Part shown: positions 106 to 23,051 of the stretch, one piece after another | Layout: every line of letters starts with the position of its first letter | Numbering within the stretch: position 1 is the first letter of the stretch | Assembly: GCA_017991475.1 (NCBI GenBank) | Contig: JAGOQK010000001.1 | Span: forward strand, 105,689 to 169,688 | DNA length: 64,000 nucleotides | Direction: 5' to 3' | From: Minisyncoccota bacterium | GTDB taxonomy: Bacteria; Patescibacteriota; Minisyncoccia; Phycocordibacterales; PALSA-1337 | Notes under the pieces: generated by a model | What the model was told of the DNA's origin: nothing | Seen by the model: the letters and a program-made list of their open reading frames with translations, nothing else | Database searches by the model: none | Position numbers and translations under genes: made by a program

Positions 106-261
106 CTAGGAACGCTTCTTGTCGTTCGTGTCAGCTGGCGTATCCTTGAATGCTCCGCGAAGATGCTTGATTGCATCGACAATATTCCTCGACAATTCTG
201 GGATCTTCTTCGATCCGAACAATATCAAAAGTATCACCGCAATGATGATGATCTCCTTCAT
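106..261 (-). CDS. tatA: Twin-arginine translocase subunit TatA (51 aa; below the ORF-track size cutoff)
   Basis: Manual translation of the minus strand gives MKEIIIIAVILLILFGSKKIPELSRNIVDAIKHLRGAFKDTPADTNDKKRS. The N-terminal TM helix followed by FGxKKxPEL and an amphipathic helix is the TatA/E signature. It lies immediately downstream of tatC. Confidence 0.6.
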   Translation of the reverse strand: MKEIIIIAVILLILFGSKKIPELSRNIVDAIKHLRGAFKDTPADTNDKKRS

Positions 262-288
262 GCCTATATTTCCAAACATAGTATTGAA

Positions 289-1041
289 TTAAAAATTACT
301 AATAATTTCCTGCTTCCTAAATCTTGAATTTACAATAATTGTAACTTCGTAAAGAAGGATAAGCGGCAACGCCATTGCCATTAATGATAACCCGTCAGTA
401 GGTGGAAGTAAAGAAGTAAAAATGAAGATTATCAACACCGCCAGGCGCCTCTTCTTTTTCAAGAAACCAACATCAAAAAGGCCTACTCTGACGACAAGCG
501 AGACTACAATAGGAAACTGAAAAAGTACCCCAAGTAGCGTAGATGTGAGGATAATCTGAGATAGAAACATGCCAATATCCCATATATTCTGGACGCCAAT
601 GTGGACATTGATTTGAGCCAGTAATATCAATGCGTAGTACATGATCGCAAAACCATAGGCAAATCCAGCAAAGAATAATGCGAGAGCGATGGGGACCAGT
701 GAGAAAAAGACTCCCTTTTCCCTCCTTGTAAGTGCGGGTTTCAGGAATACGAACATGTGATATGCAAAAACGGGACAACTAACCAGAAAAGCAGTAAATA
801 GACCAATATTAATCGAGAGGTCTGCGAACTGAAAAGGTGAGGTGGTGGCAATAACTACATCCTGAATATCGAAGAATGAAAGTATGTACTTGAGTATCCT
901 ACTCGTCAAAAGAAAACCCGCGATAAAAAGCAGTGCAAATAGAATCGCAAGCTTATAGAGCCTCCCCCGTATATCCTCTAAATACGGGGTAAATTTTGAG
1001 ATGAAATCCCTTATCTTTTCCACGGTACTAGAATAGTACAC
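289..1041 (-). CDS. tatC: Twin-arginine translocase subunit TatC
   Basis: 250 aa, six predicted TM segments, and a TatC-like N-terminus (LEDIRGRLYK...). Size and hydropathy fit the TatC family. Confidence 0.75.
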   Translation of the reverse strand: MYYSSTVEKIRDFISKFTPYLEDIRGRLYKLAILFALLFIAGFLLTSRILKYILSFFDIQDVVIATTSPFQFADLSINIGLFTAFLVSCPVFAYHMFVFLKPALTRREKGVFFSLVPIALALFFAGFAYGFAIMYYALILLAQINVHIGVQNIWDIGMFLSQIILTSTLLGVLFQFPIVVSLVVRVGLFDVGFLKKKRRLAVLIIFIFTSLLPPTDGLSLMAMALPLILLYEVTIIVNSRFRKQEIISNF

Positions 1042-1229
1042 TACTATTCAGACATAATGAAGATATTGCTTCCTCCACCGGTAACTGCAGGTATTTCTGA
1101 ACAAAGAAAAGCGCCATTACTGCCGAGAAGAACATCATTGGGAATAAATGCTGGATTTCCTGCAGGAATTTCAACTAAGAAATCCTGGCCATCCCCTGTT
1201 TGTGCAAGAATATCAGTTATTGCCATATG

Positions 1230-2063
1230 TTATAAACCCAACTTCTTAGAAATCTTATTCTTCACCAATTTTTTCGCGAACGCCACGACTTCTTCAGTGG
1301 TCGTGCTCGTATTCGTCGGCGTTTCCAAGATAGGCGGCACCACTATGGCCGGACTCTCCTCGATTACAGTTGTATCCGAAGATGTCGCATTTGTGTCAGA
1401 AGGTGCTGGGGGTACGATAATTTCTGGGGTTGTCGTTGAAACATTCTGATCTGGAATCAGAATTTCGGGGGGAGTTGTAGTTGCGACTGGCGCAACACCC
1501 GGAAGTACACTACCCGGGGTCGTCGTGGATGTTTCAGTAGGTGGATAATTGAAAGTTGGAGTCGTTGTTGCTGTCGTCGACGGTGTAGTAGTTGACTGAG
1601 TTGTAGGTGTGGTTGTCGAGGTGACCACTGGAGGCGTTGTGGTGGATGTGTTGGTATTTGGGGCTGGATTGACCACTGCTGGGGTTGTGGTCGCGGTTTC
1701 GGTATTCGTCGGCGTTTCTGCTTCTTCCTCGACTGCAGCTGCCTCTTCTGTAGGCACGACGCCTTCAGCCTGCGGCACGATATTTTCAATTACTTTATCG
1801 ACTGCAACTTGCTGACTATCCTTACCATAGAGACTCTTGGGATCAAGTTTGATTATCTCTGCGAGTAACTCGTCTGGATCTGAGATCGAGTACACCATGC
1901 CCCCATAGGCAACAAATCGTGCCTCATAGCGAACTGCTGGTTCGTCAGGAAATGCCTTTGGTGCACAAATGATAGAATCACCGTCATTGTAGTAACCTGT
2001 CTGATCATAAACGACCAGTGTCGGATTATCTGTAAGTGCTTGTCCTTTTTTTAGATAAATCAT
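1230..2063 (-). CDS. Hypothetical protein with a globular N-terminal domain and a long Thr/Pro-rich low-complexity region (STTTP repeats)
   Basis: 277-aa ORF. Residues 1-100 look like ordinary protein; residues 110-250 are dominated by T/P/S with reiterated TTTP units; the C-terminus is a basic amphipathic tail (KKLVKNKISKKLGL). Confidence 0.55.
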   Translation of the reverse strand: MIYLKKGQALTDNPTLVVYDQTGYYNDGDSIICAPKAFPDEPAVRYEARFVAYGGMVYSISDPDELLAEIIKLDPKSLYGKDSQQVAVDKVIENIVPQAEGVVPTEEAAAVEEEAETPTNTETATTTPAVVNPAPNTNTSTTTPPVVTSTTTPTTQSTTTPSTTATTTPTFNYPPTETSTTTPGSVLPGVAPVATTTPPEILIPDQNVSTTTPEIIVPPAPSDTNATSSDTTVIEESPAIVVPPILETPTNTSTTTEEVVAFAKKLVKNKISKKLGL

Positions 2064-2092: not shown

Positions 2093-4936
2093 TTACTGCG
2101 TCAACACTGCCCTGACTTTTAAATTATCCCCAAGAGATGCTGGAGTGTACCTAATGTAGGTTGTTTCATTTCCCTTGTCTGTCGTATTGTAAGCACCCCA
2201 AGATGTACCATCAGTAGATTTCTGCCATGTACCACTATTCGTACTAGTCGTGTAATCATCGAGCAGAAGATCTTCTGTGACTGCATTATAAAGTCTGATT
2301 CGTAACGTAGGAACTGTTCCACCGAAGGTAGTCGCAAATCTCCAAACAAACTGCTTGGCTGCAGCATTTGATTTTACGACTGATGGTTGATAGTGAGAAT
2401 CCGTTTTATTTACCGCATCATCATAGACGACGACTATACCCATAATACGAGCAGGTACACACGACCACCCTATCGTATCAAACTCAAACATAAACTGTAT
2501 TCGAGGTGAACTGGCAAGACTTGAAAGGTCGCCGTCACGTGGAACAAGTGACCATTCTCCAGTATCTGTCAAAATACCTTTTGTTCTGAAATATATCTGG
2601 TACGGTTCTGTATTCACAAGAATTTCTCCCGTGCCCAACTGATCAGTATGAAAAATATTCACACTACTAAATTGTGCACAATCTGTCGTATAAAGAGCGG
2701 GTGTTATAACTCGCTGATTTGTGGTTGCTGCATACGTGGAGTGTGCTGAAAATGGCAGTGCATACATCTGTGATAATGCCGCAGTCACACCATGCTTCAC
2801 AATATGAACAATACCATTCTGACTCCAGATAGATGCCAGCTGAGATGACGTACTGAAATGTGGTTCTGTGCCACTATTCCAATCGATTACATAGGCTGAG
2901 CCGGCACTAATAGTTCCCGCTGTCGAACTCAACGTGATTGAAGTTATAGAAGTAAAAGCAGAAATCGTGAACCATGAAACTATAGCTGTAGGATCAGTAG
3001 AACCAAAACCGATACGAAAGCCAACCATAGCAGCTGTAAAAAATGTATTAGTACCAGTAACTGCCGTACCAGAAACCGCAACAGTACCTGAGGAAATATA
3101 TGCATTACCGAGCGCAAGAATTTGATCTTGTTGTTTGTCGTCAACGCCCCAGATATGATCAAAGGGAGAACCACTCAGATCAGGATACTGGGTAACATAA
3201 TGTCTGAGACCTGTGGCTCCTGTGGTGAGCACAATGAGTCTATCCATTCCGTCTGCAATTTCCACAGAGCTGAGTGCTGATGATGCTGGAGTAGAACTGA
3301 CACCACCTGTCGGAATTTCAGCCAAATTCTCTGATATCCATCCATTATTCCCCGCATATATTCTGAATATTGAAGCACGATAGATACGAGTATGGGTGAC
3401 GAAATAGATAGAAATTATACCAGCACCTGGACCATGATTAAGTGTTCCAATTCTTCCGTTATTGACACCAGAAACTGTTCCGTTCACAAGCTGTGGACCC
3501 GTACAGATGACATCAGCCGAATCAACTATGAAATTTGCTCCTGCACCTATCGTTCCAGCCGATGATGAAAGTGTTATTGAAGTTGTTGATGAAAAAGCAG
3601 AAATTGTGTACCACGTAGTGACATTCGCAGGACTTGTCGTTCCAAAACCAATTTTCATTCCAACCATTGCAGCGGTGAATGTCGTTCCACTTCCTGTGAC
3701 AGCTGTTCCCGTCACCTCGACAGTTCCGGTGGTATAGTACTCAATTGACATGAGCATCTTACCAGAAGTAAGAACACCTGTTGCTCGCAGATTATAACGG
3801 TATACTTTCAAATAAGTTGATCCAAAACCATCTATTACATACGCGTAATGAAGACCCTTATTAATTTCAGGCTCTATTGTCAATCCACAAGGGGTGATAT
3901 TGGTAACCACATTTGCTGTGGTACCAGCATCTGAAAGCCAATAGACTGCCTTGATGTTATCCGTGGTTGTTGCAAATGCGACAGTAGTCGTACCATTTGT
4001 AGTAAAATCAGAATAATTTACACCCTTAACCAAGTGTAATCCACCATTTGCGGCGGTGGTAGCATTTGTTGTAGTGATAGCAAATCTCAATTCTTCAATT
4101 ACATACGAACTCCCTGCACTGACTGTTCCTGCTGTCGAGGCAAGCGTGATACCCGTCTCACTATCAATACTAGATATCACATACCACGATACGATGGCAG
4201 TAGGATCAGTAGAACCAAAACCGATACGCGCTCCGACCGCCAACCCTTCCGTTTGCCACAATGTATCAGTACCTGTAACAGCAGTTGCTGCTACTTCGAC
4301 AGTTCCTGTGGTGTGTAGATATCGAAGTGCTCTGAAACCACGAATTGTGTGCGCTGTTGCGGAATTGAGTGTGGCAGCAATAAAGCCTTTCCATGTATAT
4401 ACAGAAGTGGTTTTATTGTACTCATACATACTAATTTCTCTTGCAGCAACTGAAGCAATTGAATTTTCAATAAGAAATACCCAGTCTATCGTTGAACTGT
4501 AGGTCATGGCGTGCGGATACATCATGGGCGTGTTGTATACGACCACATAGGCAGTACCAGCCGTGACAGGAGTAGCACCTACCGAAGGTGATATAGTCAT
4601 CCCTGTTGTAGATGCGCGTGCTGTTATTGAATACCACGTAGTGATCTTCGCTGGATCATTTGAACCGAAACCGATAGACATACCTATCATGCTCGTCAGA
4701 AAATTTGTACCAGAACCAGTGACAGCAGTAGTAGTTACCTGTACTGTTCCTACAGTATCAACTACTTCCTGCATAGGAAGAGTAATTCCTACCGGCAGTG
4801 GGCCAACGAATTTGTCTTCAGGGTTTGAACCCGTATTCTGAATCATCAATGTACCCAAACACGTTTTTGTGTAGTCATAAGAAGCGATTGGTGTCGTCTC
4901 TCCGGTGAATGTATGTTTGACTGCGCGTAGTGCCAT
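2093..4936 (-). CDS. Giant repeat protein, paralog 3 of a tandem triplet (947 aa), function unknown
   Basis: The N-terminus (MALRAVKHTFTGETTPIASYD...GTLMIQNTG) and C-terminus (YIRYTPASLGDNLKVRAVLTQ) are conserved with the two upstream paralogs. Four internal ~75-aa repeats carry the motif GTVxVxGTAVTGxGTxF...IGFGSTDPTxIVSWY...ITLSSxAGT. No signal peptide. The stop/start spacing to the next gene is 1 nt. Confidence 0.8.
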   Translation of the reverse strand: MALRAVKHTFTGETTPIASYDYTKTCLGTLMIQNTGSNPEDKFVGPLPVGITLPMQEVVDTVGTVQVTTTAVTGSGTNFLTSMIGMSIGFGSNDPAKITTWYSITARASTTGMTISPSVGATPVTAGTAYVVVYNTPMMYPHAMTYSSTIDWVFLIENSIASVAAREISMYEYNKTTSVYTWKGFIAATLNSATAHTIRGFRALRYLHTTGTVEVAATAVTGTDTLWQTEGLAVGARIGFGSTDPTAIVSWYVISSIDSETGITLASTAGTVSAGSSYVIEELRFAITTTNATTAANGGLHLVKGVNYSDFTTNGTTTVAFATTTDNIKAVYWLSDAGTTANVVTNITPCGLTIEPEINKGLHYAYVIDGFGSTYLKVYRYNLRATGVLTSGKMLMSIEYYTTGTVEVTGTAVTGSGTTFTAAMVGMKIGFGTTSPANVTTWYTISAFSSTTSITLSSSAGTIGAGANFIVDSADVICTGPQLVNGTVSGVNNGRIGTLNHGPGAGIISIYFVTHTRIYRASIFRIYAGNNGWISENLAEIPTGGVSSTPASSALSSVEIADGMDRLIVLTTGATGLRHYVTQYPDLSGSPFDHIWGVDDKQQDQILALGNAYISSGTVAVSGTAVTGTNTFFTAAMVGFRIGFGSTDPTAIVSWFTISAFTSITSITLSSTAGTISAGSAYVIDWNSGTEPHFSTSSQLASIWSQNGIVHIVKHGVTAALSQMYALPFSAHSTYAATTNQRVITPALYTTDCAQFSSVNIFHTDQLGTGEILVNTEPYQIYFRTKGILTDTGEWSLVPRDGDLSSLASSPRIQFMFEFDTIGWSCVPARIMGIVVVYDDAVNKTDSHYQPSVVKSNAAAKQFVWRFATTFGGTVPTLRIRLYNAVTEDLLLDDYTTSTNSGTWQKSTDGTSWGAYNTTDKGNETTYIRYTPASLGDNLKVRAVLTQ

Positions 4937-4937
4937 A

Positions 4938-7373
4938 TTAATTTTGTGTTAAATGTGCCCTCACTGATATACCATCCGTAAGTGCCGAGGGGGTATATCG
5001 TATGTAGGTAATATCGTTGGTCTTATCGGTACTATTATACGCTGTCCAGCTAGCCCCGTCGTCTATTGATTTGTGCCATGTTCCATTGGCTGAAGCTGCA
5101 GTAGTATCAGTAAACAAAGACGCATCCGTCTCAGCATTAAATAATTCAATCTTCAAATTTGGAACTGTGCCACCAAACCCATGACAAAATCTCCATGCAA
5201 ATCTTTCATTTGTTGCATCGGAATGTACTGTCGAAAGCTGATAATGTGAGTCAGTCGATCCATCTTCATACGTCACAGCTATACGCATCACTCGTGCTGG
5301 TAGACATAATCTGCCGATAGTATAAAACTCAAGCATGAATTGAATTGCATTTGCTGGTGACACAGAACTGAGATCTCCATTCCCTTCAACGAGCACCCAG
5401 GAGCTGGTAGCATCTGACGCAATATCAGCAGTACGGTAGTACACCCGAAACGATTCTGGCGACAATCTGAGCTCACCTGATCCAAGATACCTATCTTCAG
5501 TCACAATCACTTGATCAAATTTTACACAACCTGCTGTTGCGAGCGATGGAGTGATGACACGCTGGTGATTTGCGGGTGATACTGAATATGCATAAGTGGC
5601 ATGTGCACCAAACGGTAATGAGTACATTTGGTTCAATTGGGCTGTTGCCCCATTCCTGGTAATATGAACGATACCATTACTCACATCCGCAGATAATAAC
5701 TGTGAACCTGTATTAAAATGAACCACACCTTGTGAGCTTAGAAGAGACTGATCTTGCTGTTTATCGTCAACACCAAATACATGATCGAAGGGGGTTGTAT
5801 CAGTGGCAGGATACCGCGTCACATACTGACGATACGCAGCGTTTGCAGCATACGTAGTAATCAACAATTTATCGATAGTCGGCATATACTGTACGTTTAC
5901 CATGTTTCCTGTCGCAGGGAATGTCGAGATTCCACCCGGAGGAATCTCCTGCCTGATATTTGCAGCTGTGATGAATGTCGTATTACCAGCTGTAATGAGA
6001 GAAACATCAACACAATAGAGTCGTGTGAGCGTTACAAAATATAAATAGGATGAGCCTGAACCTGGACCATGCGCAAGTGTTTCAACTGTGCCATTATTCG
6101 CTGAAAGGTTGGGTATTGTTCCTGTTACAGCTTGTGTTCCTGTACTGACAATATTTGCACCAGCGAGTGTCATCTTCCCTGCCGCAACAGCATCATTCGC
6201 CCTGAGATTATACTTGAATATGCGTGCATTTGTTGTGTTCGTACCGTTCAGAATATAAGCAAAATGACTTGTCTTACTTGTTTCAGCTTCCAAAGCCAAA
6301 CCGCTTGCTGCTGTGTTCGTAACTGTGGCCGCATCTGCAAGCCAGTACACACCTCTCTGATTATCGATATTACTCGCAATCGAGGGAAATGTGTTTCCAG
6401 CCGTCGTGAAGTCAAGGTGACTTGCTCCTTTAAGGAGAAATAGTCCACCGTTTGTTGATGTTGTGTTTGTAAGTGATATAGCAAACCTCAACTCCTCAAT
6501 CACATATGGGGTACCTGCAGGGACAACTCCAGGTGAGGTAGTGATGTTGAGGGATGTATCACTGGCAATAGCTCCGATCTGGTACCACTGAGTGATTTGG
6601 GTTGGATCCGTTGATCCAAAACCAATACGGGGACCGAGACCTCCAGCAACAGATGTTGAAGCAGTTCCTGCAGCTATACGATCAGCAACAAATGTTGTAC
6701 TTGTTCCCGTCACTGTACACGATGCGATGACGTAGTTTGCAGATGCGGCAATGGCGCTCGACGCACCAGAAACTGTAATTGAAAGTGTTGAGGTAAATGT
6801 GATGATCGGGTACCAACAATTGATCTGGGCTACGTTCGTACTCCCAAAACCAATCATTTTACCAACCATTGCTACAGTAAATGTGGTACCAACTCCAGTT
6901 ACAACACCCGTAACTGCGAGAGCAACAGAAGTTCCTGCTGCATAATAGCTTACTGGTGCTGCTACTGCGACGGTACCTGTTGTGTGGAGATAGCGGAGCG
7001 CACGAAAGCCTCTATTTATATTTGTAGCAAAAGGTGTCGTGGCAGTAATAAAACCATTACGAGTATAGACAGAATTAACCTTGTCATATTCATACAGAAA
7101 TATTCTTTTTGCGGCAGTGATAGAGTTTTCGAGCATGAATACCCAATCAACCGTAGAACTATAGGGGACTACGTGTGGAAACATCATAGCCACAGCTGTT
7201 GATTCTTCCATCGGTCTCGCTATCGCGACAGGAAGCGGTCCGACGAAATTCTCTTGTGGAGTCAAACCAGTTTTTTGCACCATCAAAGTACCCAAGCTTG
7301 TCTTGGTCGAATCGTATGAAGCGATCGGTGTAGTAGCTCCTGTGAAAATATGTTCGTTAACTCGTAGTGACAT
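4938..7373 (-). CDS. Giant repeat protein, paralog 2 (811 aa), function unknown
   Basis: Shares the N-terminal module (MSLRVNEHIFTGATTPIASYD), the central blocks (GFRALRYLHTTGTV; DDKQQDQ; LAHGPGSG; IQFMLEFYTIG) and the C-terminal module (YIRYTPSALTDGISVRAHLTQN) with the flanking paralogs. Confidence 0.8.
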   Translation of the reverse strand: MSLRVNEHIFTGATTPIASYDSTKTSLGTLMVQKTGLTPQENFVGPLPVAIARPMEESTAVAMMFPHVVPYSSTVDWVFMLENSITAAKRIFLYEYDKVNSVYTRNGFITATTPFATNINRGFRALRYLHTTGTVAVAAPVSYYAAGTSVALAVTGVVTGVGTTFTVAMVGKMIGFGSTNVAQINCWYPIITFTSTLSITVSGASSAIAASANYVIASCTVTGTSTTFVADRIAAGTASTSVAGGLGPRIGFGSTDPTQITQWYQIGAIASDTSLNITTSPGVVPAGTPYVIEELRFAISLTNTTSTNGGLFLLKGASHLDFTTAGNTFPSIASNIDNQRGVYWLADAATVTNTAASGLALEAETSKTSHFAYILNGTNTTNARIFKYNLRANDAVAAGKMTLAGANIVSTGTQAVTGTIPNLSANNGTVETLAHGPGSGSSYLYFVTLTRLYCVDVSLITAGNTTFITAANIRQEIPPGGISTFPATGNMVNVQYMPTIDKLLITTYAANAAYRQYVTRYPATDTTPFDHVFGVDDKQQDQSLLSSQGVVHFNTGSQLLSADVSNGIVHITRNGATAQLNQMYSLPFGAHATYAYSVSPANHQRVITPSLATAGCVKFDQVIVTEDRYLGSGELRLSPESFRVYYRTADIASDATSSWVLVEGNGDLSSVSPANAIQFMLEFYTIGRLCLPARVMRIAVTYEDGSTDSHYQLSTVHSDATNERFAWRFCHGFGGTVPNLKIELFNAETDASLFTDTTAASANGTWHKSIDDGASWTAYNSTDKTNDITYIRYTPSALTDGISVRAHLTQN

Positions 7374-7374
7374 A

Positions 7375-10026
7375 CTAGTAAAGTGTCAGCAATGATCTGA
7401 CTTTTATATTGTCAGGCAAGGTTGCGGGAGTATATCGAATGTATGTTGTTTCGTTTCCCTTATCTGTCGTATTGTATGCGACCCATGTCGTGCCATCAGT
7501 TGTTTTTTCCCAGGTACCCGCAGGAGTAGAGGAAATATCATCTACAAGTAATCCACCTGTCACCGCATCGAGAAGTCTTATTCTGAGTGTCGGTACAGCA
7601 GAACCAAATGCTGTAGAAAAACGCCAAGCAAATTGTTTGCTTGCAAGTACCGTCTTCCCTGCAGAGGGTTGATAGTGTGGATCAGTTGTATAATCATCAT
7701 ACAATACCGCGAGTGACATGATACGACCCGGAATCCCAAGAAGACTGATGGTGACAAACTCAAACATAAACTGAATATTAGAAGCTGGTGACAAACCAGT
7801 AAGATCACCGTCTGCAGCAAGCAGTGTCCATTCTCCACTATTATCTGTAATGCCGTTTGTTCGGTAATACGTAAGGATAGAAGCAGTCGGTACTCGAAAT
7901 TCTTCACTACCAAGGTGGTCAACTGTTGATAGTAGAACTCTCGTATACGCGGCACAATCGGGTGTTGAGAGAGTTGGAGAGATTATTCTTTGGTTTGTTT
8001 CTGACGCATGAACCCAATGTGCCGACAACGGTAGTGCATACAATTGACATAATGCTGCAGTTGTACCGTGTTTAATGATATGCGCAACACCATTTTCACT
8101 CCATACTGAAGTAATCTGTGATGCGGTGTTGAAGTGAATAGCTGTGTTTGGATCAGCTAGAGATTGATCCTGCTGCTTATCGTCAAGACCAAAGAATCGA
8201 CTAAACTGGTCACCGGCTGCATCAGGATACTTTGTGACGTAGTGCTTGAATGCCGTCGCACCTGTGGTAAGCACAATCAAACGATCGATAGCATCTGCAA
8301 TCTCAATCATATTGAGAGCTCCTGTCGCTGGGAAGGTACTCGCGGATCCTGGGGGGATCTCTGGGCGATTGTCGGATATCCAACCAAGATTTCCTGAATA
8401 TATATTTGATAATGCCGCTCGGTAAATACGGCTTGCTGTCACAAAATAAAGCGACAGCTCCCCAGCACCTGGACCATGATTGAGTGTACCGACACGGCCA
8501 TTGTTGGCACCAATCACAGTACCTGTGACGAGCTGATTTCCTGTACAAATGACGTCTGCACTATCGATAATGTACGATGAGCCGCCTGCAATGGTACCAG
8601 CCGATGAAGAAAGCGTGATTGATGTTGTCGAGCTAAATGACTCTATCGTGTACCAAGTGGTAACAGTAGCGGGACTAGTCGTACCAAAACCAATTTTCAT
8701 TCCTACCATCGTTGCTGTAAACGTAGTACCAGAACCCGTCACTGCTGTTCCTGAAACTCCTACTGTACCTGTCGTATAGTATGCAATTGACATCAGCATC
8801 TTACCAGAAGTGATCGTACCAGTCGCACGAAGATTGTACCTATACACTTTCATGAATGTTGCACCCACCCCGTCGGGTACATATGCATAATGAAGGCCTT
8901 TATTGATTTCTGGTAGCAGAGTAAGTCCACAGGCAGCTGTATTTGTAGCTACATTGGCAGTCGTTCCCGCATCACACAACCAATATACCCCTCGCTGATT
9001 GTCAATTGCACTTGCAATAGCGGGAAATGTTGTTCCAGCAGTTCTAAAATCATAAAAGCCCGCGCCTTTGAGTAAGAAAAGTCCGCTATTAGTAGTTGTC
9101 GTTGCTTGTGATATGGTGAACGCAAACCTTAGTTCCTCTATCACATAGGGCGTACCAGCAGGAACGACTCCTGGTGACGTGTTGAGGTTGAGTGATGTAT
9201 CACTCGCTATAGCTCCAATGTGATACCAGCTTGTGATCTGGGTCGGATCAGTAGAACCAAAACCGATACGGGGACCAAGACCTCCTACTGCTGCAGTAAC
9301 TGTCGTACCCGCGGCTATACCTTCTTCTACAAATTTTGTTCCTGTGCCCGTTACTACACACGAGGCAATAACATAGTTTGCAGATGCAGCGATGACACTC
9401 GATGCTCCAGAAACTGTGATTGAAAGTGTTGAGGTGAATGTAATGATCGGGTACCAGCAGTTGATTTGAGCTACGTTTGTACTACCGAAGCCAATCATTT
9501 TACCTACCATAGCAGAAGTGAATGTGGTACCTACACCAGTCACTATACCACTCACTGCAAGAGCCACAGAAGTTCCTGCGGAATAATAGCTCACTGGTGC
9601 TGCAACAGCGACTGTGCCAGTGGTATGAAGATACCGGAGAGCACGAAATCCTCTTGTTGTGTTCGCATTTGCGGCACTCGGCAACGTTGCAGTAATAAAA
9701 CCCTTCCAATTGTATGTTGATTTTGTCTTATCATACTCATACAAGAAAATTTCACGGGCTGCCGTTGCTGTCGCAAGGTTACGAGTCACAAAAACCCAGT
9801 CTATCGTAGAGCTATAAGTTAGGACGTGAGGATACATCATACCAAGCGCAGTAGTTTCCTCAGCTGGTCGTGCAATACCTACAGGGAGTGGTCCAGCCCA
9901 ATTATCCTCAGGATAGGTTCCTGATTTTTGGACCATCAACGTACCTAAATTTGTCTTAGTAGGATCATAAGACGCTATAGGTGTTGTGGGTCCGTTGAAT
10001 ATATGTTCGACTGCGCGTAGTGCCAT
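7375..10026 (-). CDS. Giant repeat protein, paralog 1 (883 aa), function unknown
   Basis: Same conserved N-terminal, central and C-terminal modules as its paralogs, and the same IGFGSTDPT..W[YF] repeat units. Its first ~330 aa are nearly identical to paralog 2. Confidence 0.8.
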   Translation of the reverse strand: MALRAVEHIFNGPTTPIASYDPTKTNLGTLMVQKSGTYPEDNWAGPLPVGIARPAEETTALGMMYPHVLTYSSTIDWVFVTRNLATATAAREIFLYEYDKTKSTYNWKGFITATLPSAANANTTRGFRALRYLHTTGTVAVAAPVSYYSAGTSVALAVSGIVTGVGTTFTSAMVGKMIGFGSTNVAQINCWYPIITFTSTLSITVSGASSVIAASANYVIASCVVTGTGTKFVEEGIAAGTTVTAAVGGLGPRIGFGSTDPTQITSWYHIGAIASDTSLNLNTSPGVVPAGTPYVIEELRFAFTISQATTTTNSGLFLLKGAGFYDFRTAGTTFPAIASAIDNQRGVYWLCDAGTTANVATNTAACGLTLLPEINKGLHYAYVPDGVGATFMKVYRYNLRATGTITSGKMLMSIAYYTTGTVGVSGTAVTGSGTTFTATMVGMKIGFGTTSPATVTTWYTIESFSSTTSITLSSSAGTIAGGSSYIIDSADVICTGNQLVTGTVIGANNGRVGTLNHGPGAGELSLYFVTASRIYRAALSNIYSGNLGWISDNRPEIPPGSASTFPATGALNMIEIADAIDRLIVLTTGATAFKHYVTKYPDAAGDQFSRFFGLDDKQQDQSLADPNTAIHFNTASQITSVWSENGVAHIIKHGTTAALCQLYALPLSAHWVHASETNQRIISPTLSTPDCAAYTRVLLSTVDHLGSEEFRVPTASILTYYRTNGITDNSGEWTLLAADGDLTGLSPASNIQFMFEFVTISLLGIPGRIMSLAVLYDDYTTDPHYQPSAGKTVLASKQFAWRFSTAFGSAVPTLRIRLLDAVTGGLLVDDISSTPAGTWEKTTDGTTWVAYNTTDKGNETTYIRYTPATLPDNIKVRSLLTLY

Positions 10027-10047: not shown

Positions 10048-10749
10048 TTAAACTTCCAAATAATCTATGTTTATCTGGACTGTAGTCGTACCAGATATCA
10101 CACAGTATAACACCTCATCGATACCTCCCTCGATATAGTTTGGGTGGTTATTTGCACCATACAATCCTCCTGCTTTAGGAGAAACGTACTTTTCATGATC
10201 GGTACCACCAGATGTAAAGCGGAATGATACCGAAGTAGCATCAGCGGTCAATGAAAAACGTGAAGCATACACGCGGATCTTGTTGCCGGATCCTGGTGTG
10301 AGCACATTGCCTGACGCGGCAAGATTAATGGAGAGCTTAGTTACCCCTTGGCCTGTAACCAGTGAGGACAACGTTTCTTCAGTCGCAGGATTTATTCGAT
10401 CGTTGCTTGCGTCCTTAACGCCAACCACGCTCGATGATGGTGTACTACCCATCACCAAGGCTGATGCTTTATTCGGAAGGAGCTGCGATGCCACCACGCC
10501 GGCGCCTGCAAGACCGAGCGCCTTAAGAAAGAATCTCTTGTTGTTGTCAGGGACTGCAACCGTAGAAATATCTCCAGATGAAATACCTGGTGCGGTGTTT
10601 GTAAGCTCCCTCACGGGCTCAACAACACTCTCCCGTATGAAGCGGAATGAATGTTTATTTGTAAGCATAAAAAGCGATGGGCATTTCTCCTTAATTATCG
10701 TCGAAATATGCTTTTGTCGCAAGGCTATTTTTGCCCTGCTTATCCACAC
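10048..10749 (-). CDS. Hypothetical exported protein with a Tat-like signal motif (KRFFLKALGLAGAGVVAS...ASA); start codon uncertain
   Basis: 233-aa ORF. About 60 residues in from the annotated start it contains NNKRFFLK followed by a hydrophobic Ala/Gly-rich h-region and an AxA site. An in-frame GTG about 24 codons upstream of the motif is an alternative start. It is the first gene of the operon that ends in tatC-tatA. Confidence 0.55.
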   Translation of the reverse strand: MWISRAKIALRQKHISTIIKEKCPSLFMLTNKHSFRFIRESVVEPVRELTNTAPGISSGDISTVAVPDNNKRFFLKALGLAGAGVVASQLLPNKASALVMGSTPSSSVVGVKDASNDRINPATEETLSSLVTGQGVTKLSINLAASGNVLTPGSGNKIRVYASRFSLTADATSVSFRFTSGGTDHEKYVSPKAGGLYGANNHPNYIEGGIDEVLYCVISGTTTVQINIDYLEV

Positions 10750-12628: not shown

Positions 12629-13519
12629 TTATAGCTCCTTCTCCGCTTCAATAAACTCATCAATCTCCCCTTCAAGTACCTTGTCCACTTGCGCAGTCTC
12701 TAAGTTAGTTCTATGGTCTTTTACCATTTTGTACGGATGTAGCACATATGAGCGTATCTGATTGCCCCATTCGATGGCGGTTGTCGATGATATCTGCATA
12801 CCGCGCTCCTTGGCAATACGAGCGTCTTCCATACGCTTCCAGAGCTTGCCTCGAAGAATGTCGAGTGCCTTCTCGCGATTTTGGGCCTGTGATCTCTCCG
12901 AAGTGACATGAATAGAAATACCCGTCGGCGTGTGAACCAACCTCACCGCAGTTTCGCGCTTGTTCACATTCTGGCCACCGGGGCCGCCCGATTTTGCTAT
13001 AGATATTTCGAGATCGCTGTCAGGAATCACCAAGTCGCTCGCAGAGGTCTTTTCAAATTTAGGAACGACTTCGACCAGAGAAAAAGACGTATGCCTTTTC
13101 TGATTTGCATTGAATGGCGAAATACGAACGAGACGATGGACGCCCGACTCATTCTTGAAAGAACCATATGCATTTTTACCAGAAATTTCGATGGTAATAT
13201 TACGATATCCTCCGTGATCATTTTCATTGCTATGAATGACTGACCATCCCCACCCTTTACCGTCAGCGTACTTGCGATACATCCGCACGAGTATGGCTGA
13301 GAAATCCTCTGAGTCATCACCCCCGGCACCAGAAAGCACGCTCATGATAGCGTCACCCTTGTCATACTTCCCTACGCCTTCTAGCTCATCCTTGAGCCGC
13401 TGAAGTTCCTTGACTGATGCTTGAGCTCTGACTTTGTCTACCCAAAAATCAGCATCGCCCATAGACGCTTCAAGTTCGACGATTTTCTTCTCTATTTCTT
13501 CTTTTTGGTTGATAGACAT
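12629..13519 (-). CDS. prfB: Peptide chain release factor 2 (296 aa; N-terminally short form, no programmed frameshift)
   Basis: GGQ motif ([11 protein letters not shown]) and the RF2-specific SPF tripeptide ([15 protein letters not shown]). Start trimmed to the MSINQ Met, because the longer ORF extension runs antisense through tRNA-Thr. Confidence 0.85.
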
Positions 13520-13527
13520 AATTCGAG

Positions 13528-13600
13528 AGCCGAAGCCCGGGATCGAACCGGGGACCCTTGCTTTACGAAAGCAATGCTCTACCAACTGAGCTACTTCGGC
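13528..13600 (-). tRNA. tRNA-Thr (anticodon CGU)
   Basis: Manual cloverleaf: acceptor GCCGAAG/CTTCGGC, D-arm GCTC-AGTTGGTA-GAGC, anticodon arm TTGCT-TTCGTAA-AGCAA, T-arm CCCGG-TTCGATC-CCGGG. Confidence 0.8.
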
Positions 13601-13693
13601 ACCGCTTCGCTCTACGCCATACTCCGAGCTTCGCAGTGCAGGCAATAAATAACCAAGCTTGCACTTCGAAGCTTGCGCAGCTTAGCGAAGAAG

Positions 13694-13769
13694 TGGAGCC
13701 AATGTCCGGGATTGAACCGGAGACCTCGCCATTACCAATGGCGTGCTCTACCAACTGAGCTACATTGGC
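13694..13769 (-). tRNA. tRNA-Thr (anticodon GGU), CCA encoded
   Basis: Acceptor GCCAATG/CATTGGC, anticodon arm CGCCA-TTGGTAA-TGGCG, T-arm TCCGG-TTCAATC-CCGGA, 3' CCA present. Confidence 0.8.
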
Positions 13770-13854
13770 GCAATCAATCTATCATTGCACAACCAGACAA
13801 CAATAGCTTATTTATTGAATATTTTCAATCCGCGCCCCTCTCGGAGCTACACTC

Positions 13855-13915
13855 CTCACAACTGCGCCATATAAAAAACTGAACATATCGTTCAGTTTTT
13901 TATATGGCGCAGTTG
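13855..13915. repeat. Perfect 26-bp hairpin whose distal arm is the 3' acceptor/CCA end of tRNA-Asp
   Basis: caactgcgccatataaaaaactgaac-atatcg-gttcagttttttatatggcgcagttg. Confidence 0.7.
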
Positions 13916-13981
13916 ACGGGGCTCGAACCCGCAACCTCTCCCGTGACAGGGGAGTGCTCTAACCAATTGAGCTACAACTGC
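13905..13981 (-). tRNA. tRNA-Asp (anticodon GUC), CCA encoded
   Basis: Acceptor GCAGTTG/CAACTGC, anticodon arm CTCCC-CTGTCAC-GGGAG, T-loop TTCGAGC, discriminator G. Confidence 0.8.
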
Positions 13982-14044
13982 ATATCGCACCAGTCGCATC
14001 AGTCTAGCAAAAAAGCATAAAAACACAAGAATGACCCACTAATG

Positions 14045-14118
14045 TGTCGGCGGAAGGGATCGAACCTTCGACCTTGGGCTTATGAGTCCCACGCTCTAAC
14101 CAACTGAGCTACGCCGAC
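14045..14118 (-). tRNA. tRNA-Met elongator (anticodon CAU; the Ile2 lysidine type cannot be excluded)
   Basis: Acceptor GTCGGCG/CGCCGAC with a G1-C72 pair, anticodon loop CTCATAA, T-loop TTCGATC. Confidence 0.7.
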
Positions 14119-14217
14119 ATTGATACTACGATGTTTGAGATAATAATCGAAAAAACAGCTTTATGCAAACCTCATCCTTGCATTCATGGAGATACTATGG
14201 CAAAATCAATGAATCAT

Positions 14218-14289
14218 CGCGGGGTAGGGTAACGGTAACCCGTCAGGCTCATAACCTGAAAATTGCTGGTTCGATTCCGGCCCCCGCAA
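14218..14289 (+). tRNA. tRNA-fMet initiator (anticodon CAU)
   Basis: C1xA72 mismatch at the end of the acceptor stem (CGCGGGG/CCCCGCA) and discriminator A73; anticodon arm TCAGG-CTCATAA-CCTGA; T-arm GCTGG-TTCGATT-CCGGC. Confidence 0.7.
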
Positions 14290-14298
14290 CAAGTATTG

Positions 14299-19641: not shown

Positions 19642-20205
19642 TTACCTGCGTACGGCGACCATAGTGCTTACGAGATGGATCTCGAACGGTATCGTCCCTT
19701 GCATCCAGTTCACCGTCACATGAGCCTGTACCTCTGGCATAAGGTGTGTACCTCCTACATTCTCCAAATAGAACTTTCGTGAAAATTCCGTCATCGTACC
19801 GCCGGCACTCGAGTCGCTCGTATACCCATCGTCATCGGAGTAATATACCGGGCAGCCTTCCGACGGACAATCTGTAGAGATCATGTACGATCCGATTCCA
19901 TTAGCATCGCAAGGATCATTTTCCGTACAACTACCGATCCCCGTGAGCCACTGTGCCGCGATATCGTCTGCGTCATAAATATTATTATCGTGAATATTCT
20001 TGACGACCTCCATACTTTCTTGTGCCAAGAATGACGCAATCATCTGGTTCTTGGAATAGAGAGCGGCCGTAAGACCCTTGGTCGCGATGACGAGCGGCCC
20101 AGCGATCGCGATCATCAAGATTGCGACTGCGACGAGCGTCTCTACGAGCGTGAAGGCTCGGGCGCCTGTGATTGAACGATGTGTTGTATGTTTGCGAATA
20201 CTCAT
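19642..20205 (-). CDS. Prepilin-type N-terminal cleavage/methylation domain protein (pseudopilin)
   Basis: GARAFTLVETLVAVAILMIAI, the class III signal (G/AFTLxE). Confidence 0.7.
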   Translation of the reverse strand: MSIRKHTTHRSITGARAFTLVETLVAVAILMIAIAGPLVIATKGLTAALYSKNQMIASFLAQESMEVVKNIHDNNIYDADDIAAQWLTGIGSCTENDPCDANGIGSYMISTDCPSEGCPVYYSDDDGYTSDSSAGGTMTEFSRKFYLENVGGTHLMPEVQAHVTVNWMQGTIPFEIHLVSTMVAVRR

Positions 20206-20207
20206 GA

Positions 20208-20879
20208 TTACTGCGCAACGTGCGGCGCTACACTAGTCTGAACATTGAAATATGTCTTCTCGCGCTCCTTGGTGCCCGCATAGCCTGATATACGGATCGT
20301 TGCGAGAGGATACTCACCCGCATCCTCGACATTGAGATAGTACCCCACGACCTTGAGGTTACTATCAAGAATAGAGATGAAGTCTCCGTCACTTATCGGC
20401 TCTGCACACTCTACCTGCTCTGCTTTCCGTAGTTCATATGTGTCATCTATTGGCACGAAGCGGTACGCTATTGCTCGTGCACATGAAGTGGAACCTTCGA
20501 TGATACGGCCCGCTCTGAATACCAGAGTAGCATCAGATGACTCACCAATCGCCCTACAACCACCAGCATCAGTGAGCGAATCTCCTGAATAGTTTGCAAC
20601 ACCACCGATCTCGCAGGTATAAGCACCTCCTGTGCGCATCTCGCGCGACATCGCATCGAGAGCAAAATTGAGGTTGGTGATAGACGTCTGCAATGTCTGT
20701 GCTTTCCTATTCGCAGACACGATCTTGACCAATGCGCCGAGTGCGACAACGGCGACTACCGAGAAAACCGCGAGCGAAACAATCATCTCGACAAGGGTGA
20801 ATCCTCGAGGTGGAGTGACTACTTCTCGATTAATTATATTTTTTTTAAACAATGATGAAGGCATGTATAGATGTACCAT
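20208..20879 (-). CDS. Prepilin-type N-terminal cleavage/methylation domain protein (pseudopilin)
   Basis: RGFTLVEMIVSLAVFSVVAV motif. Confidence 0.7.
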   Translation of the reverse strand: MVHLYMPSSLFKKNIINREVVTPPRGFTLVEMIVSLAVFSVVAVVALGALVKIVSANRKAQTLQTSITNLNFALDAMSREMRTGGAYTCEIGGVANYSGDSLTDAGGCRAIGESSDATLVFRAGRIIEGSTSCARAIAYRFVPIDDTYELRKAEQVECAEPISDGDFISILDSNLKVVGYYLNVEDAGEYPLATIRISGYAGTKEREKTYFNVQTSVAPHVAQ

Positions 20880-21527
20880 TTACTCCTCAAGCCCAGAATC
20901 ATTAACACTTATCTGACCATTCTTTCTTATAGAAACGAAGCGGTAGTCACCTGACGGACTGCTAATCATAATTTGTGCCGTAATAATTAATCCACACCTT
21001 CCAGCTACACTCCCATTATAAGAGCACATCTGAGCACTTGGATCTGGGCGCTTAAATACAACATCAAACGATGAACCTACGTTGAAGCACTGCGTCACAC
21101 ATGCAACACTATCACAACAAGTTGCAGCAATATCTAATATTCGTACCCCCCCTCTCAGTGTTGAATATGAAATTTCCTCTCCTTGATCATATATGCCATT
21201 TGCATTCAAATCAGAAAATGTGACGATTGTTTGGCTATTTGGAATATTTGACAACTCATTTATTTGTTCACCTATTTCACGAATAGAAAAATTCACTCCA
21301 TAAGCGTTGTTGAAGCCGCCCGAGTCATCACTCCTCACACTCAATCCATACGTCTGCGCCGTACGGATCGCCAGCGCCACATCATATGCAGCATTGGTGA
21401 GCAGGACGTTGTTGTTGAAATTGCCATACTTCGCCACCACGAGCGTAGTCATGAGAGCGAAGATGCTGATCGAGACGAGAAGCTCGACGAGTGTGAATGC
21501 GTGCGTATGTTTTCGAGAGCGGAACAT
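20880..21527 (-). CDS. Prepilin-type N-terminal cleavage/methylation domain protein (pseudopilin)
   Basis: HAFTLVELLVSISIFALM motif. Confidence 0.7.
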   Translation of the reverse strand: MFRSRKHTHAFTLVELLVSISIFALMTTLVVAKYGNFNNNVLLTNAAYDVALAIRTAQTYGLSVRSDDSGGFNNAYGVNFSIREIGEQINELSNIPNSQTIVTFSDLNANGIYDQGEEISYSTLRGGVRILDIAATCCDSVACVTQCFNVGSSFDVVFKRPDPSAQMCSYNGSVAGRCGLIITAQIMISSPSGDYRFVSIRKNGQISVNDSGLEE

Positions 21528-21578
21528 GGGGATAGTATATCACAAGACCCTAGCCGAGGTGGAACCTCGGTTGACATT

Positions 21579-22376
21579 TCACTGAAAAATGATTTCTTTT
21601 AGTAAGTTGATATCGAGCACTTGTATCTGGAACAAGAGCACGAGATACATCCCAAGAATGAGATACGGGCCAAACGGCACCTCGGTTCTCGGTTTGAATT
21701 TCTTGTAGGTGACAAAAAGCCACACGAGACTGGCTGCTGCTGCGATCCAGAACGCCAGTATCATCGCATTGATGGCACCTGAAACGCCCAAAAACCACCC
21801 TATACCGAGCATGAGCTTGGCATCGCCCAATCCCATCCACTTACCCCGAGAAATGAGCCAAAGCACTGCAAATGGCGTAGCAGCAAGCGGACCCGCGATG
21901 AGTGCCCAGTACCCCGGGATATGCCACCATGAGGACCCTCCTACGAAGAGGCTCAGAAGTGCAGCGGCAGAAAACGCATACGAGAAGCTATCTGGGATAA
22001 TCTTGTGCTTGATGTCATAGACGCAAATAACCAGGAGAAGACATGCGGCAATGACGTGAATGAGGGTGACGACAGCTACTAGAGCATCGAATGGCGGAAA
22101 AGTCAGAAAAATCAACACAAATATTACTCCAGCCATGAATTCGACGAGTGGATACTGCCACGAGATCTTGCTCTTACACTTCTTGCAAGCCCCTCTTTGG
22201 ATCAAGAAGCTGAAAACAGGAACCAATTCCTTCCAAGTAAGCCCTTCTCCGCACGACATACACTTGGATCTACCCCCGAGCCCTACCCCGGTATTGAAAC
22301 GAAGCGAAACGACATTGAGGAAACTACCGACGATAGCGCCGAATATGAAGGAAATGAGGAGCGAGAGCGGGGTCAT
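21579..22376 (-). CDS. pilD: Prepilin leader peptidase / N-methyltransferase (A24 family)
   Basis: Polytopic membrane protein with a cytoplasmic tetracysteine motif (CMSC...CKKC) and conserved GLGDAKL in the peptidase domain. Confidence 0.85.
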   Translation of the reverse strand: MTPLSLLISFIFGAIVGSFLNVVSLRFNTGVGLGGRSKCMSCGEGLTWKELVPVFSFLIQRGACKKCKSKISWQYPLVEFMAGVIFVLIFLTFPPFDALVAVVTLIHVIAACLLLVICVYDIKHKIIPDSFSYAFSAAALLSLFVGGSSWWHIPGYWALIAGPLAATPFAVLWLISRGKWMGLGDAKLMLGIGWFLGVSGAINAMILAFWIAAAASLVWLFVTYKKFKPRTEVPFGPYLILGMYLVLLFQIQVLDINLLKEIIFQ

Positions 22377-22395
22377 CTGAGACTAAGGAAATGAA

Positions 22396-22929
22396 TTAAT
22401 TTGAAGAAATACAATACTGATAGAGGGGGCTTCCGCTCTCACCCTCATCCTTACACGCATCTACAAAAGTGCCTGACCACACACCAAATTCACTATCTAT
22501 ATCATCTTGCAGAGCGACGCTTTTTGATTCCAGCACCGTACGCAGTATATACGCATCTACCGTGGCACCGTTTGTATGCACGATATATTCATAGTTATCA
22601 GATCCGCCCTCAGCTTGAGGTTCGGGGCTTTTTGGTATCGTAGGAAGGAAATTTCCGAGAGTTATGCCTGATGGGCACCTATCACTTCCATTATCGCTTA
22701 AATCTAAATATGTATCCATCGTTGGGTAAGTCTTACATCTATCATAGAAAAGCTCGAGCGCCAGCTGTATCTGACCAAGATCTGATACCCTCTTTGCGTC
22801 TCTGGCCTTCGCCTTGGGTCCAGTGAGATTGGCCATGACAATACCAGTCAATATTGCGATGATTGCGATGACGACGAGCAGTTCGATGATGGTGAATGCG
22901 CCTTTAAAATTTTTGAGAGATTTTTTCAT
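22396..22929 (-). CDS. Type IV pilin (177 aa)
   Basis: MKKSLKNFKGAFTIIELLVVIAIIAILTGI, the canonical GFTxxELLVV prepilin signal. Start trimmed to that Met. Confidence 0.8.
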   Translation of the reverse strand: MKKSLKNFKGAFTIIELLVVIAIIAILTGIVMANLTGPKAKARDAKRVSDLGQIQLALELFYDRCKTYPTMDTYLDLSDNGSDRCPSGITLGNFLPTIPKSPEPQAEGGSDNYEYIVHTNGATVDAYILRTVLESKSVALQDDIDSEFGVWSGTFVDACKDEGESGSPLYQYCISSN

Positions 22930-23051
22930 GGGTTTATTGTAGCACAGTCGAAGAGTAACAACTGGGGATGAGCGGTAACAACGCATTTCCCCGCATATAC
23001 AAAACCACCCCTCGGGTGAGGGGTGGTGATTTATACTGAGAAACGACAATA

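Follow-up and report, generated by a model that had tools for sequence, protein, structure and literature searches.

The stretch analysed here, 64,000 nucleotides (nt) of contig JAGOQK010000001.1 from a Minisyncoccota bacterium (positions 105,689 to 169,688 of the forward strand), is called the window in what follows. On its minus strand it carries three tandem genes for large related proteins, P1, P2 and P3, which are studied here together with the operon around them. A preliminary description of this DNA had seen in them a candidate cassette in which recombination shuffles repeats of ~75 amino acids (aa) and generates surface variation. All three are intact open reading frames (ORFs) of 883, 811 and 947 aa, exactly at the coordinates already announced, and 1 nt separates each stop codon from the next start, TAG-T-ATG and TAA-T-ATG being indeed present at the junctions; the three genes are translationally coupled. 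P2 is a 100% match to the NCBI entry 'MAG: hypothetical protein KBC33_00620 [Candidatus Pacebacteria bacterium]'.

7375..10026, minus strand: P1, 883 aa, modules B1, B2 and C (ORF and translation)
4938..7373, minus strand: P2, 811 aa, modules B1 and B2 (ORF and translation)
2093..4936, minus strand: P3, 947 aa, modules A, B2, C and D (ORF and translation)

The three proteins have the same two ends. The common N-terminus reported previously is conserved, but the pattern given for it was one residue short and should read M[AS]LR[AV][VN][EK]H, while the C-terminal pattern YIRYTPxxLxDxxxVRxxLT and the internal blocks GFRALRYLHTTGTV, DDKQQDQ, L[NA]HGPG[AS]G and IQFM[FL]EF were recovered as described in all three proteins. 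Starting from one repeat, an iterated hidden Markov model (HMM) search detected nine copies of a ~70-aa module (E 1e-30 to 1e-34): four in P3, in agreement with the four repeats counted before, three in P1 and two in P2. Blastn, tblastn and a six-frame HMM search of the 64 kb turned up no further copy of the module or of the genes. The nine modules, all with their HMM E-values, are the following.

9367..9579, minus strand: module B1 of P1, residues 150-221, E 5e-29
9136..9345, minus strand: module B2 of P1, residues 228-297, E 3e-32
8563..8772, minus strand: module C of P1, residues 419-488, E 2e-30
6726..6938, minus strand: module B1 of P2, residues 146-217, E 4e-29
6495..6704, minus strand: module B2 of P2, residues 223-293, E 2e-31
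4541..4753, minus strand: module A of P3, residues 62-133, E 2e-28
4094..4309, minus strand: module B2 of P3, residues 210-281, E 2e-29
3521..3730, minus strand: module C of P3, residues 403-472, E 6e-32
2882..3091, minus strand: module D of P3, residues 616-685, E 6e-32

A three-way protein alignment is colinear from the first to the last residue, and the only large differences are the presence or absence of modules. These occupy four positions with five slots, A (P3 only), B1 (P1 and P2), B2 (all three), C (P1 and P3) and D (P3 only), and the conserved blocks between slots form a common scaffold. The repeats therefore do differ in number (3, 2 and 4), as had been noted, but their order is not shuffled. 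In the wider family, modules are present or absent at no fewer than six fixed sites, with arrangements such as A-B1-B2-C (~960 aa), A-B1-B2-C-D (~1,035 aa), and a P2 orthologue in which HGPG is followed by an additional module. Across 11 genomes, modules at the same site are 65-81% identical and modules at different sites 32-60%, whether or not they come from the same genome. Since module sites are orthologous across species, modules are gained and lost on a between-species timescale, and not by shuffling.

Within P3, modules D and B2 (2960-3016 vs 4172-4228) are 82% identical over 57 nt, with an exact run of ~29 nt coding for RIGFGSTDP, which may reflect a micro-conversion or simply the most conserved motif written with biased codons. 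Inverted repeats and pairs resembling the template and variable repeats of a diversity-generating retroelement are absent from the 64 kb (a reverse transcriptase was not specifically searched for), as are direct or inverted repeats of at least 60 nt outside the paralog-paralog matches and two tRNA-Thr genes. The antisense ORFs 4056-4502 and 6751-6945 pointed out earlier do exist.

The triad was found again, in the same order and with nearly the same lengths (877-883 aa for P1, 803-819 for P2 and 942-949 for P3), in at least 11 Paceibacteria genomes of species rank; some bear the labels Vogelbacteria and Zambryskibacteria, and about nine are other species representatives. The preliminary description had itself named an identical gene structure in related strains as an argument against a variable cassette, and at least 11 species genomes do agree in how many P genes they have, in their order and lengths, and in where the modules lie. 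Because the triad recurs with this layout in so many species, it is not a fast-changing cassette array. The sole other assembly of the window locus, Logan contig L040, is 100% identical to it over 6,507 nt. A few departures from the common layout were seen between species: one genome (L015) has an extra copy of P1, as expected from unequal crossing-over between homogenised 5′ regions; another (L018) has a divergent middle gene of 876 aa; a third (L019) has a P2 with an extra module (896 aa); and the P3 of L011 and L012 lacks a module at site D and carries two ahead of RYLH.

Recombination between the paralogs left few traces in the window itself. Nucleotide identity among the three genes ranges from 47 to 86%, and third-position identity from 35 to 58%; the longest exact matches are 17, 26 and 15 nt (17 nt for P1-P2), and no exact tract of 30 nt or more joins any two of them. 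The similarity is unevenly distributed: P1 and P2 are 83-86% identical at the nucleotide level in the B1/B2 block vs 47-60% distally. Around B1 they are 92-96% (aa) and 80-84% (nt) identical, and P1 and P3 reach 80-92% aa around module C. The divergence is therefore mosaic, as had been anticipated, and not uniform. In contrast, the claim that the first ~330 residues of P1 and P2 are almost identical was too strong: identity is 71% over residues 1-427, and attains 92-96% only over residues ~141-240. Even in this block third-position identity is only 50-58%, meaning that synonymous sites are near saturation. A residual tract, 9305-9604, is 81% identical to 6664-6963, and residues identical in P1 and P2 use the same codon in 55% of cases in codons 141-297 vs 41% elsewhere (Fisher p = 0.017). 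This excess is the faint trace of an old exchange; the last conversion in the window genome is old.

The exchange is much clearer in the related genomes, of which 11 complete triads were compared. In block B1, P1 and P2 of the same genome are identical at 93% of amino acids, 87% of nucleotides and 71% of third positions, vs 71%, 67% and 40% for P1 genes of different genomes. Over the C-terminal 250 codons the order is reversed, with 50% identity between P1 and P2 of the same genome vs 79% between orthologues. Over the first ~300 codons P1 and P2 of one genome resemble each other far more than orthologues do, and their identity exceeds that of orthologues only in the 5′ ~1,050-nt segment, which in the window corresponds to the following pair.

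8977..10026, minus strand: 5′ ~1,050 nt of P1, the segment exchanging with P2 by gene conversion
6324..7373, minus strand: 5′ ~1,050 nt of P2, the partner of the P1 conversion segment

Exact P1-P2 matches extend over 1,043 nt from the ATG in one genome (L017), where identity then falls from 100% to ~52% past codon ~348; elsewhere they measure 577, 460, 385, 143, 127, 120+101 and 98 nt. Such tracts (98-1,043 nt) occur in 8 of the 10 related genomes, all of them inside the first ~1,050 nt, and essentially no long exact P1-P3 or P2-P3 match was detected in these genomes. The mosaics of 98-100% P1-P2 tracts differ in place and length from genome to genome. Exchange between P1 and P3, near module C and the scaffold following it, was seen in some genomes only (L002 at 64-76%, L003 at 58%).

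Phylogenies by neighbour-joining with bootstrap tell the same story by segment. In six genomes (L001, L002, L010, L011, L012 and L017), P1 pairs with the P2 of its own genome with 100% support, counting a pairing when it appears in at least one of two 5′ blocks, codons 1-140 and codons 141-297. Monophyly of each paralog type is 0% in the 5′ blocks; the 3′ block gives the opposite, 100% for type monophyly and 0% for pairing by genome. An older conversion in codons 1-140, which has since diverged, is common to L011 and L012. Over residues 300-810 the triad is monophyletic (99%), P1 and P3 are sisters (100%) and P2 branches first. As P1 is there the sister of P3, the P2-like 5′ third of P1 is secondary: perhaps P1 acquired B1 from P2, or else B1 was lost from P3.

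The related genomes are short-read metagenome-assembled genomes (MAGs), the six with 100% bootstrap being assemblies from different projects, and at least 8 MAG contigs stop at residue ~353-360 of P1 or P2, which is the tract boundary and what an unresolved repeat would give. We considered an alternative in which no recombination takes place, purifying selection on a shared domain accounting for the 5′ similarity, and assembly collapse for the 100% tracts. The near saturation of synonymous sites in the window, even in the best conserved block, would fit this proposal, as would the short-read origin of the relatives and their frequent breaks at the repeat. However, selection on proteins cannot raise third positions of same-genome pairs (71%) above those of orthologues (40%), nor can it yield trees grouped by genome at 100% bootstrap in six independent assemblies. 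Moreover, tracts vary in place and length and include some at 98-99%, and the older conversion shared by L011 and L012 has diverged. Mosaics of intermediate identity, third-position statistics and this shared older conversion cannot be artefacts, so that we regard an absence of recombination as very unlikely. The hallmarks of concerted evolution by intergenic conversion were all found: paralogs more alike than orthologues in a delimited tract, phylogenetic incongruence between segments, and sharp-edged identical mosaics. We conclude that the 5′ third of P1 and P2 is under recurrent, segment-limited gene conversion, that is concerted evolution, with a sharp limit at codon ~350, beyond which P1 resembles P3.

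What does this conversion produce? It makes P1 and P2 more alike; it neither shuffles repeats nor diversifies the proteins. The first proposal, recombination generating surface variation, was thus right about the exchange between P1 and P2 and wrong about its outcome, which is homogenisation. Several observations had made a cassette that shuffles repeats among three genes attractive, and some still speak for it: conserved ends with mosaic similarity among the paralogs, real P1-P2 conversion in relatives, the between-species variants (extra P1 in L015, extra module in P2 of L019, P3 variant of L011 and L012), and the many MAG contigs that break inside the array. Yet the modules keep a colinear order and are orthologues site for site, the P genes have a constant number, order and set of lengths in at least 11 species, and purifying selection acts on three complete, coupled genes. 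The 64 kb contain neither silent cassettes nor extra copies, conversion homogenises instead of making new combinations, the window genome has no tract of at least 30 nt, and the only other assembly of the locus is 100% identical over 6,507 nt. Altogether, a diversification cassette at this locus is very unlikely.

Silent-cassette antigenic variation, as in Neisseria pilE/pilS, Borrelia vlsE and Treponema tprK, proceeds by gene conversion of surface-type proteins. Conversion among related sequences of surface-type proteins is what the P genes have in common with these systems. They differ by the lack of silent truncated donors: in place of one expression locus with partial donors, the window has three full-length ORFs and no other copy in its 64 kb, the P copies are complete, conserved and presumably co-expressed, and the outcome is homogenisation. 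A closer parallel is found in the babA, babB and babC genes of Helicobacter pylori, adhesin paralogs under concerted evolution by intragenomic gene conversion. Here again there are three paralogs with conserved ends and conversion limited to a segment, the other parts keeping a locus-specific identity. Unlike the bab genes, the P genes are in tandem and coupled in one operon, and no phase-variable repeats or expression switching were seen; conversion reaches only two of the three genes, and in these only the 5′ third, and their architecture holds from one species to the next.

Searches of Pfam, NCBIfam and PADLOC returned nothing significant for P1-P3 or their neighbours, and the scaffold has no PHROG or Pfam match. 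A single 70-aa module (D of P3) matches the N-terminus of PHROG 1591, 'tail fiber protein' (E 2.5e-7). The resemblance to PHROG 1591 and 1980 is limited to the module, at profile positions ~2-81 of 484 and 449. Pfam DUF7182 (PF23810) stayed below threshold, the best score, 23 bits for an orthologue module, and the 10.5 bits of the window P3 comparing with a cutoff of 27. Among GenBank phages (50,697 records), no match was found by megablast of a 12-kb segment or by tblastn of P1 and one module, and profile searches of PDB sequences with the module and with the upstream partner introduced below gave nothing meaningful.

An exhaustive HMMER search of 1.84 billion representatives yielded 325 clusters (50% identity) related to P2. 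Most are ~700-740 aa long and align with P2 residues ~216-810, which corresponds to a single module. In IMG/VR, 52 viral loci carry P relatives, and the two that were checked are real phages. The first (L064) encodes a large terminase and the phrog_10330 'virion structural protein', a 715-aa homologue that aligns with P2 216-810 at 42% identity (E 8e-132), and also a tail-fibre protein; the second (L061) encodes a holin, a 126-aa homologue of the window partner, a 715-aa homologue, an endolysin and replication genes. This gene context places the homologue where the distal fibre, or receptor-binding, protein is usually encoded. In another phage locus (L066), the P homologue is followed by a homologue of the N-domain of the 277-aa protein encoded 3′ of P3 in the window. 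A 633,754-bp ENA contig, NODE_2 (L094), has a T4-type portal with an intein, a terminase, Gp80 and a 709-aa P homologue; this contig could represent a phage with a very large genome. These loci have no other phage genes in common, which is typical of a horizontally exchanged fibre module. With full-length homologues residing in phage structural modules, the relatives make up an unnamed family of phage virion (tail-region) proteins. We conclude that P1-P3 belong to an unannotated all-beta family related to phage tail-region proteins, the basic ~710-aa form of which has one module.

The structure of P3 was modelled with AlphaFold2. A first model, built on an alignment of 16 sequences, was poor, with a predicted local distance difference test (pLDDT) of 60, and was replaced by one built on 139 sequences (pLDDT 90.5, predicted template modelling score 0.82). 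The latter is all-beta, with ordered strands at both conserved termini. We had thought of the N-terminal 57 aa as a disordered export or docking peptide, and dropped this idea, as the model makes them an ordered beta strand (pLDDT 82-96). In a Foldseek search of the PDB, the best match was a phage tail fibre/tailspike, 8ck1_A (E 3e-8), followed by phage endosialidases (E ~3e-5), a bacterial sialidase with a lectin domain, and generic propellers. K1F, NF and phi92 are the endosialidases named among the matches, all propellers with an inserted barrel. Against predicted viral structures, 137 matches had an E-value of at most 1e-3, the top ones (down to 9e-16) from uncultured Caudovirales, and the named ones were of tail type. 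The 8ck1_A chain is taken to be the Carin-1 tail-spike Dpo31, judging by its 826 residues vs 828 in the protein described. It was not used to assign a fold, Dpo31 being described as a beta-helix tailspike with an immunoglobulin-like insert, so that the match is local. Nor are the P proteins recognisable as sialidase/BNR propellers: there is no Pfam match, one Asp-box-like motif (S-x-D-x-G-x-S-W) was spotted by eye near the C-terminus, and the similarity to endosialidases (E ~3e-5) comes with template modelling (TM) scores of 0.13-0.24. As TM-scores are low, the fold we propose from the model, a propeller-like core with small beta-barrel inserts and a C-terminal sandwich, is tentative.

Like phage tail fibres and tailspikes, then, the P family has full-length homologues at the fibre position of uncultured phages, a module homologous to the N-terminal domain of tail-fibre PHROGs, and its best fold matches among phage tail proteins; as fibres do, the P paralogs share their N-terminal part and differ distally. 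Unlike fibres, the P genes are triplicated, lie in a housekeeping neighbourhood, are linked to TatCA and have a partner that gained a twin-arginine translocation (Tat) signal, they have no sequence match to any cultured GenBank phage, and global TM-scores are low. The genes that make up this linkage in the window are listed below.

10048..10668, minus strand: upstream partner ('up233'), maximal ORF to 10749, small protein with a Tat-type signal
1230..2063, minus strand: 277-aa protein 3′ of P3, conserved ~97-aa N-domain and Thr/Pro-rich low-complexity tail
1044..1226, minus strand: conserved 60-aa acidic protein (sequence, orthologous loci)
289..1041, minus strand: tatC (TIGR00945 at E 1e-31, below the curated cutoff; PF00902 in orthologues)
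106..279, minus strand: tatA (sequence; PF02416 in orthologues)

These flanks are constant around the triad: a ~210-aa protein upstream and, downstream, the T/P-rich protein, the 60-aa protein, TatC and TatA. TatC and TatA adjoin the cluster in every locus with enough flanking sequence, although in L017 they are on the other side. This includes a 'Pacebacteria' MAG (L093) which has a single 710-aa P gene in an otherwise similar cluster, in the order partner with a KR signal, P, 201-aa protein, 60-aa protein, TatC and two TatA genes. Given that such a single-P, Tat-linked cluster exists, the triad of the window is a lineage-specific triplication of it. The tail of the 277-aa protein is highly variable in length among orthologues (164-277 aa).

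The upstream partner probably starts at the ATG at 10668 (~206 aa), as its orthologues do, and the GTG at 10749 that had been listed is probably wrong. Its signal, at about 10459-10548, reads D-N-N-K-R-F-F-L-K, followed by a hydrophobic stretch and then A-S-A, and scores 19.3 bits with TIGR01409 (TAT_signal_seq), above the curated cutoff of 16.7. The D-x-x-K-R-x-F-L-K motif, hydrophobic stretch and A-x-A are kept in orthologues, with K-R in most and RRRLFIK in one, and the mature domain of ~125 aa is ~85% conserved. In phages, homologues of the partner (L043, L059 and L061) lie directly upstream of the P homologues and are without a Tat signal. A kinship of the window partner with the 191-aa phage protein of phrog_10330 was also considered, but BLASTP gave no alignment and thus no evidence that these upstream proteins are homologues of each other. 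The translations of P1-P3 themselves contain no Tat motif and no signal peptide, so that motif, hydrophobic region and AxA are found together in the upstream partner only.

Tat hitch-hiker export, where a signal-less subunit leaves the cytoplasm with a signal-bearing partner, is exemplified by E. coli hydrogenase-2 HybOC and by DmsAB. The P cluster is similar in that a small protein with a Tat signal is encoded directly upstream of large signal-less proteins, with tatCA in the cluster. It differs in that none of the proteins binds a cofactor, a complex between the partner and P1-P3 is putative, and K-R replaces R-R in most orthologues.

Could the triad be the remnant of a prophage tail-fibre region? 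Homologues in bona fide phage structural modules and the match of the module to tail-fibre PHROGs point in this direction, but a remnant without host function, decaying or hitch-hiking in the chromosome, is the least probable of the alternatives, because no other phage genes are nearby, the cluster is intact with the same flanks in many species and in separately named candidate groups (Vogelbacteria, Zambryskibacteria, 'Pacebacteria'), amino acids are strongly conserved despite saturated synonymous sites, and the partner has a Tat signal that phage versions do not have. The neighbours in the direction of transcription are prfB, ftsE and ftsX on the 5′ side and, beyond tatC and tatA, gatA and ligA on the 3′ side; with such bacterial housekeeping genes around it, the locus belongs to a chromosome of the candidate phyla radiation (CPR)/Patescibacteria, and not to a phage.

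Taken together, these results lead us to propose that the locus is a Tat-linked, phage-fibre-related operon with modules at fixed sites and a homogenising 5′ conversion, an explanation to which, as a whole, we give a probability of about 0.78. The operon core conserved in Paceibacteria is [Tat-type-signal partner]-P1-P2-P3-[T/P-rich]-[60-aa]-TatC-TatA, and P1-P3 are ancient paralogs built on one scaffold that takes up modules at fixed sites. Conversion repeatedly affects P1 and P2 over their first ~350 codons (N-terminal scaffold, B1 and B2), and P1 and P3 occasionally exchange near module C. The likely function of the products would be that of an exported surface complex of the receptor-binding or adhesin type, akin to phage fibres. 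Within it, the homogenised N-terminal third may be a shared anchoring part, comparable to the common N-terminal adaptor of phage fibres, and the divergent C-terminal parts, conserved between orthologues, may carry three specificities. Export would take place via the adjacent Tat system, possibly by hitch-hiking on the small signal-bearing partner.

Several points weigh against this explanation. The conversion signal is weak in the window, where the codon excess has p = 0.017 and P1 and P2 are sisters in 64% of bootstraps (B1+B2), and assembly may account for part of the 100%-identical tracts in short-read MAGs. The structural matches all have low global TM-scores (0.1-0.24), and some of the IMG/VR 'viral' contigs may be misclassified bacterial fragments. 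Finally, P1-P3 lack a signal peptide and begin, in the model, with ordered beta strands, so that export is inferred from gene linkage; Tat hitch-hiking of P proteins of 85-100 kDa is only a possibility. A bolder version of the proposal would have the operon be a domesticated phage receptor-binding module, in which a small phage partner that gained a Tat signal, with a dedicated TatCA, brings the large, pre-folded, signal-less P proteins to the cell surface by hitch-hiking, the three proteins serve as adhesins of an episymbiont, each specific to a host or ligand, and conversion keeps the anchoring third identical for all of them to fit one partner. We consider this scenario rather unlikely.

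CPR/Patescibacteria are mostly uncultured episymbionts whose surface and attachment machinery is poorly known. The operon offers a concrete candidate for an exported attachment complex, together with an export route that can be tested, and an unannotated family (about 325 clusters, no Pfam or NCBIfam model) is found to be common to phages and to a Tat-linked chromosomal operon. The P genes are also a clean natural case of segment-limited concerted evolution, with a homogenised 5′ third and strictly orthologous 3′ two-thirds. Two practical consequences follow: short-read MAGs break at the triad locus because the 5′ third is homogenised, and the similarity of paralogs at this locus should not be read as recent duplication. 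Concerted evolution is a known phenomenon; the family and the Tat-linked, phage-related CPR operon appear to be undescribed in the libraries and papers searched, a literature search on the P family, on gene conversion in Patescibacteria and on Tat-linked surface proteins of CPR having returned nothing relevant.

A scan for promoters and terminators gave nothing above chance. On the 5′ side of the operon, the prfB ORF (12629-13645, minus strand), coding for release factor 2 (RF2), aligns with the RF2 model from position ~111 onwards only and overlaps a tRNA gene at its 5′ end, so that RF2 may be short at its N-terminus or its start miscalled. Five tRNA genes (Thr-CGT, Thr-GGT, Asp, Met and Met) are located directly upstream of prfB, at 13527-14290. 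Further upstream, ~10 kb from the P triad, a type IV pilus-like cluster (19642-23049, minus strand) encodes four proteins with type IV pilin N-methylation motifs and a prepilin peptidase (Peptidase_A24).

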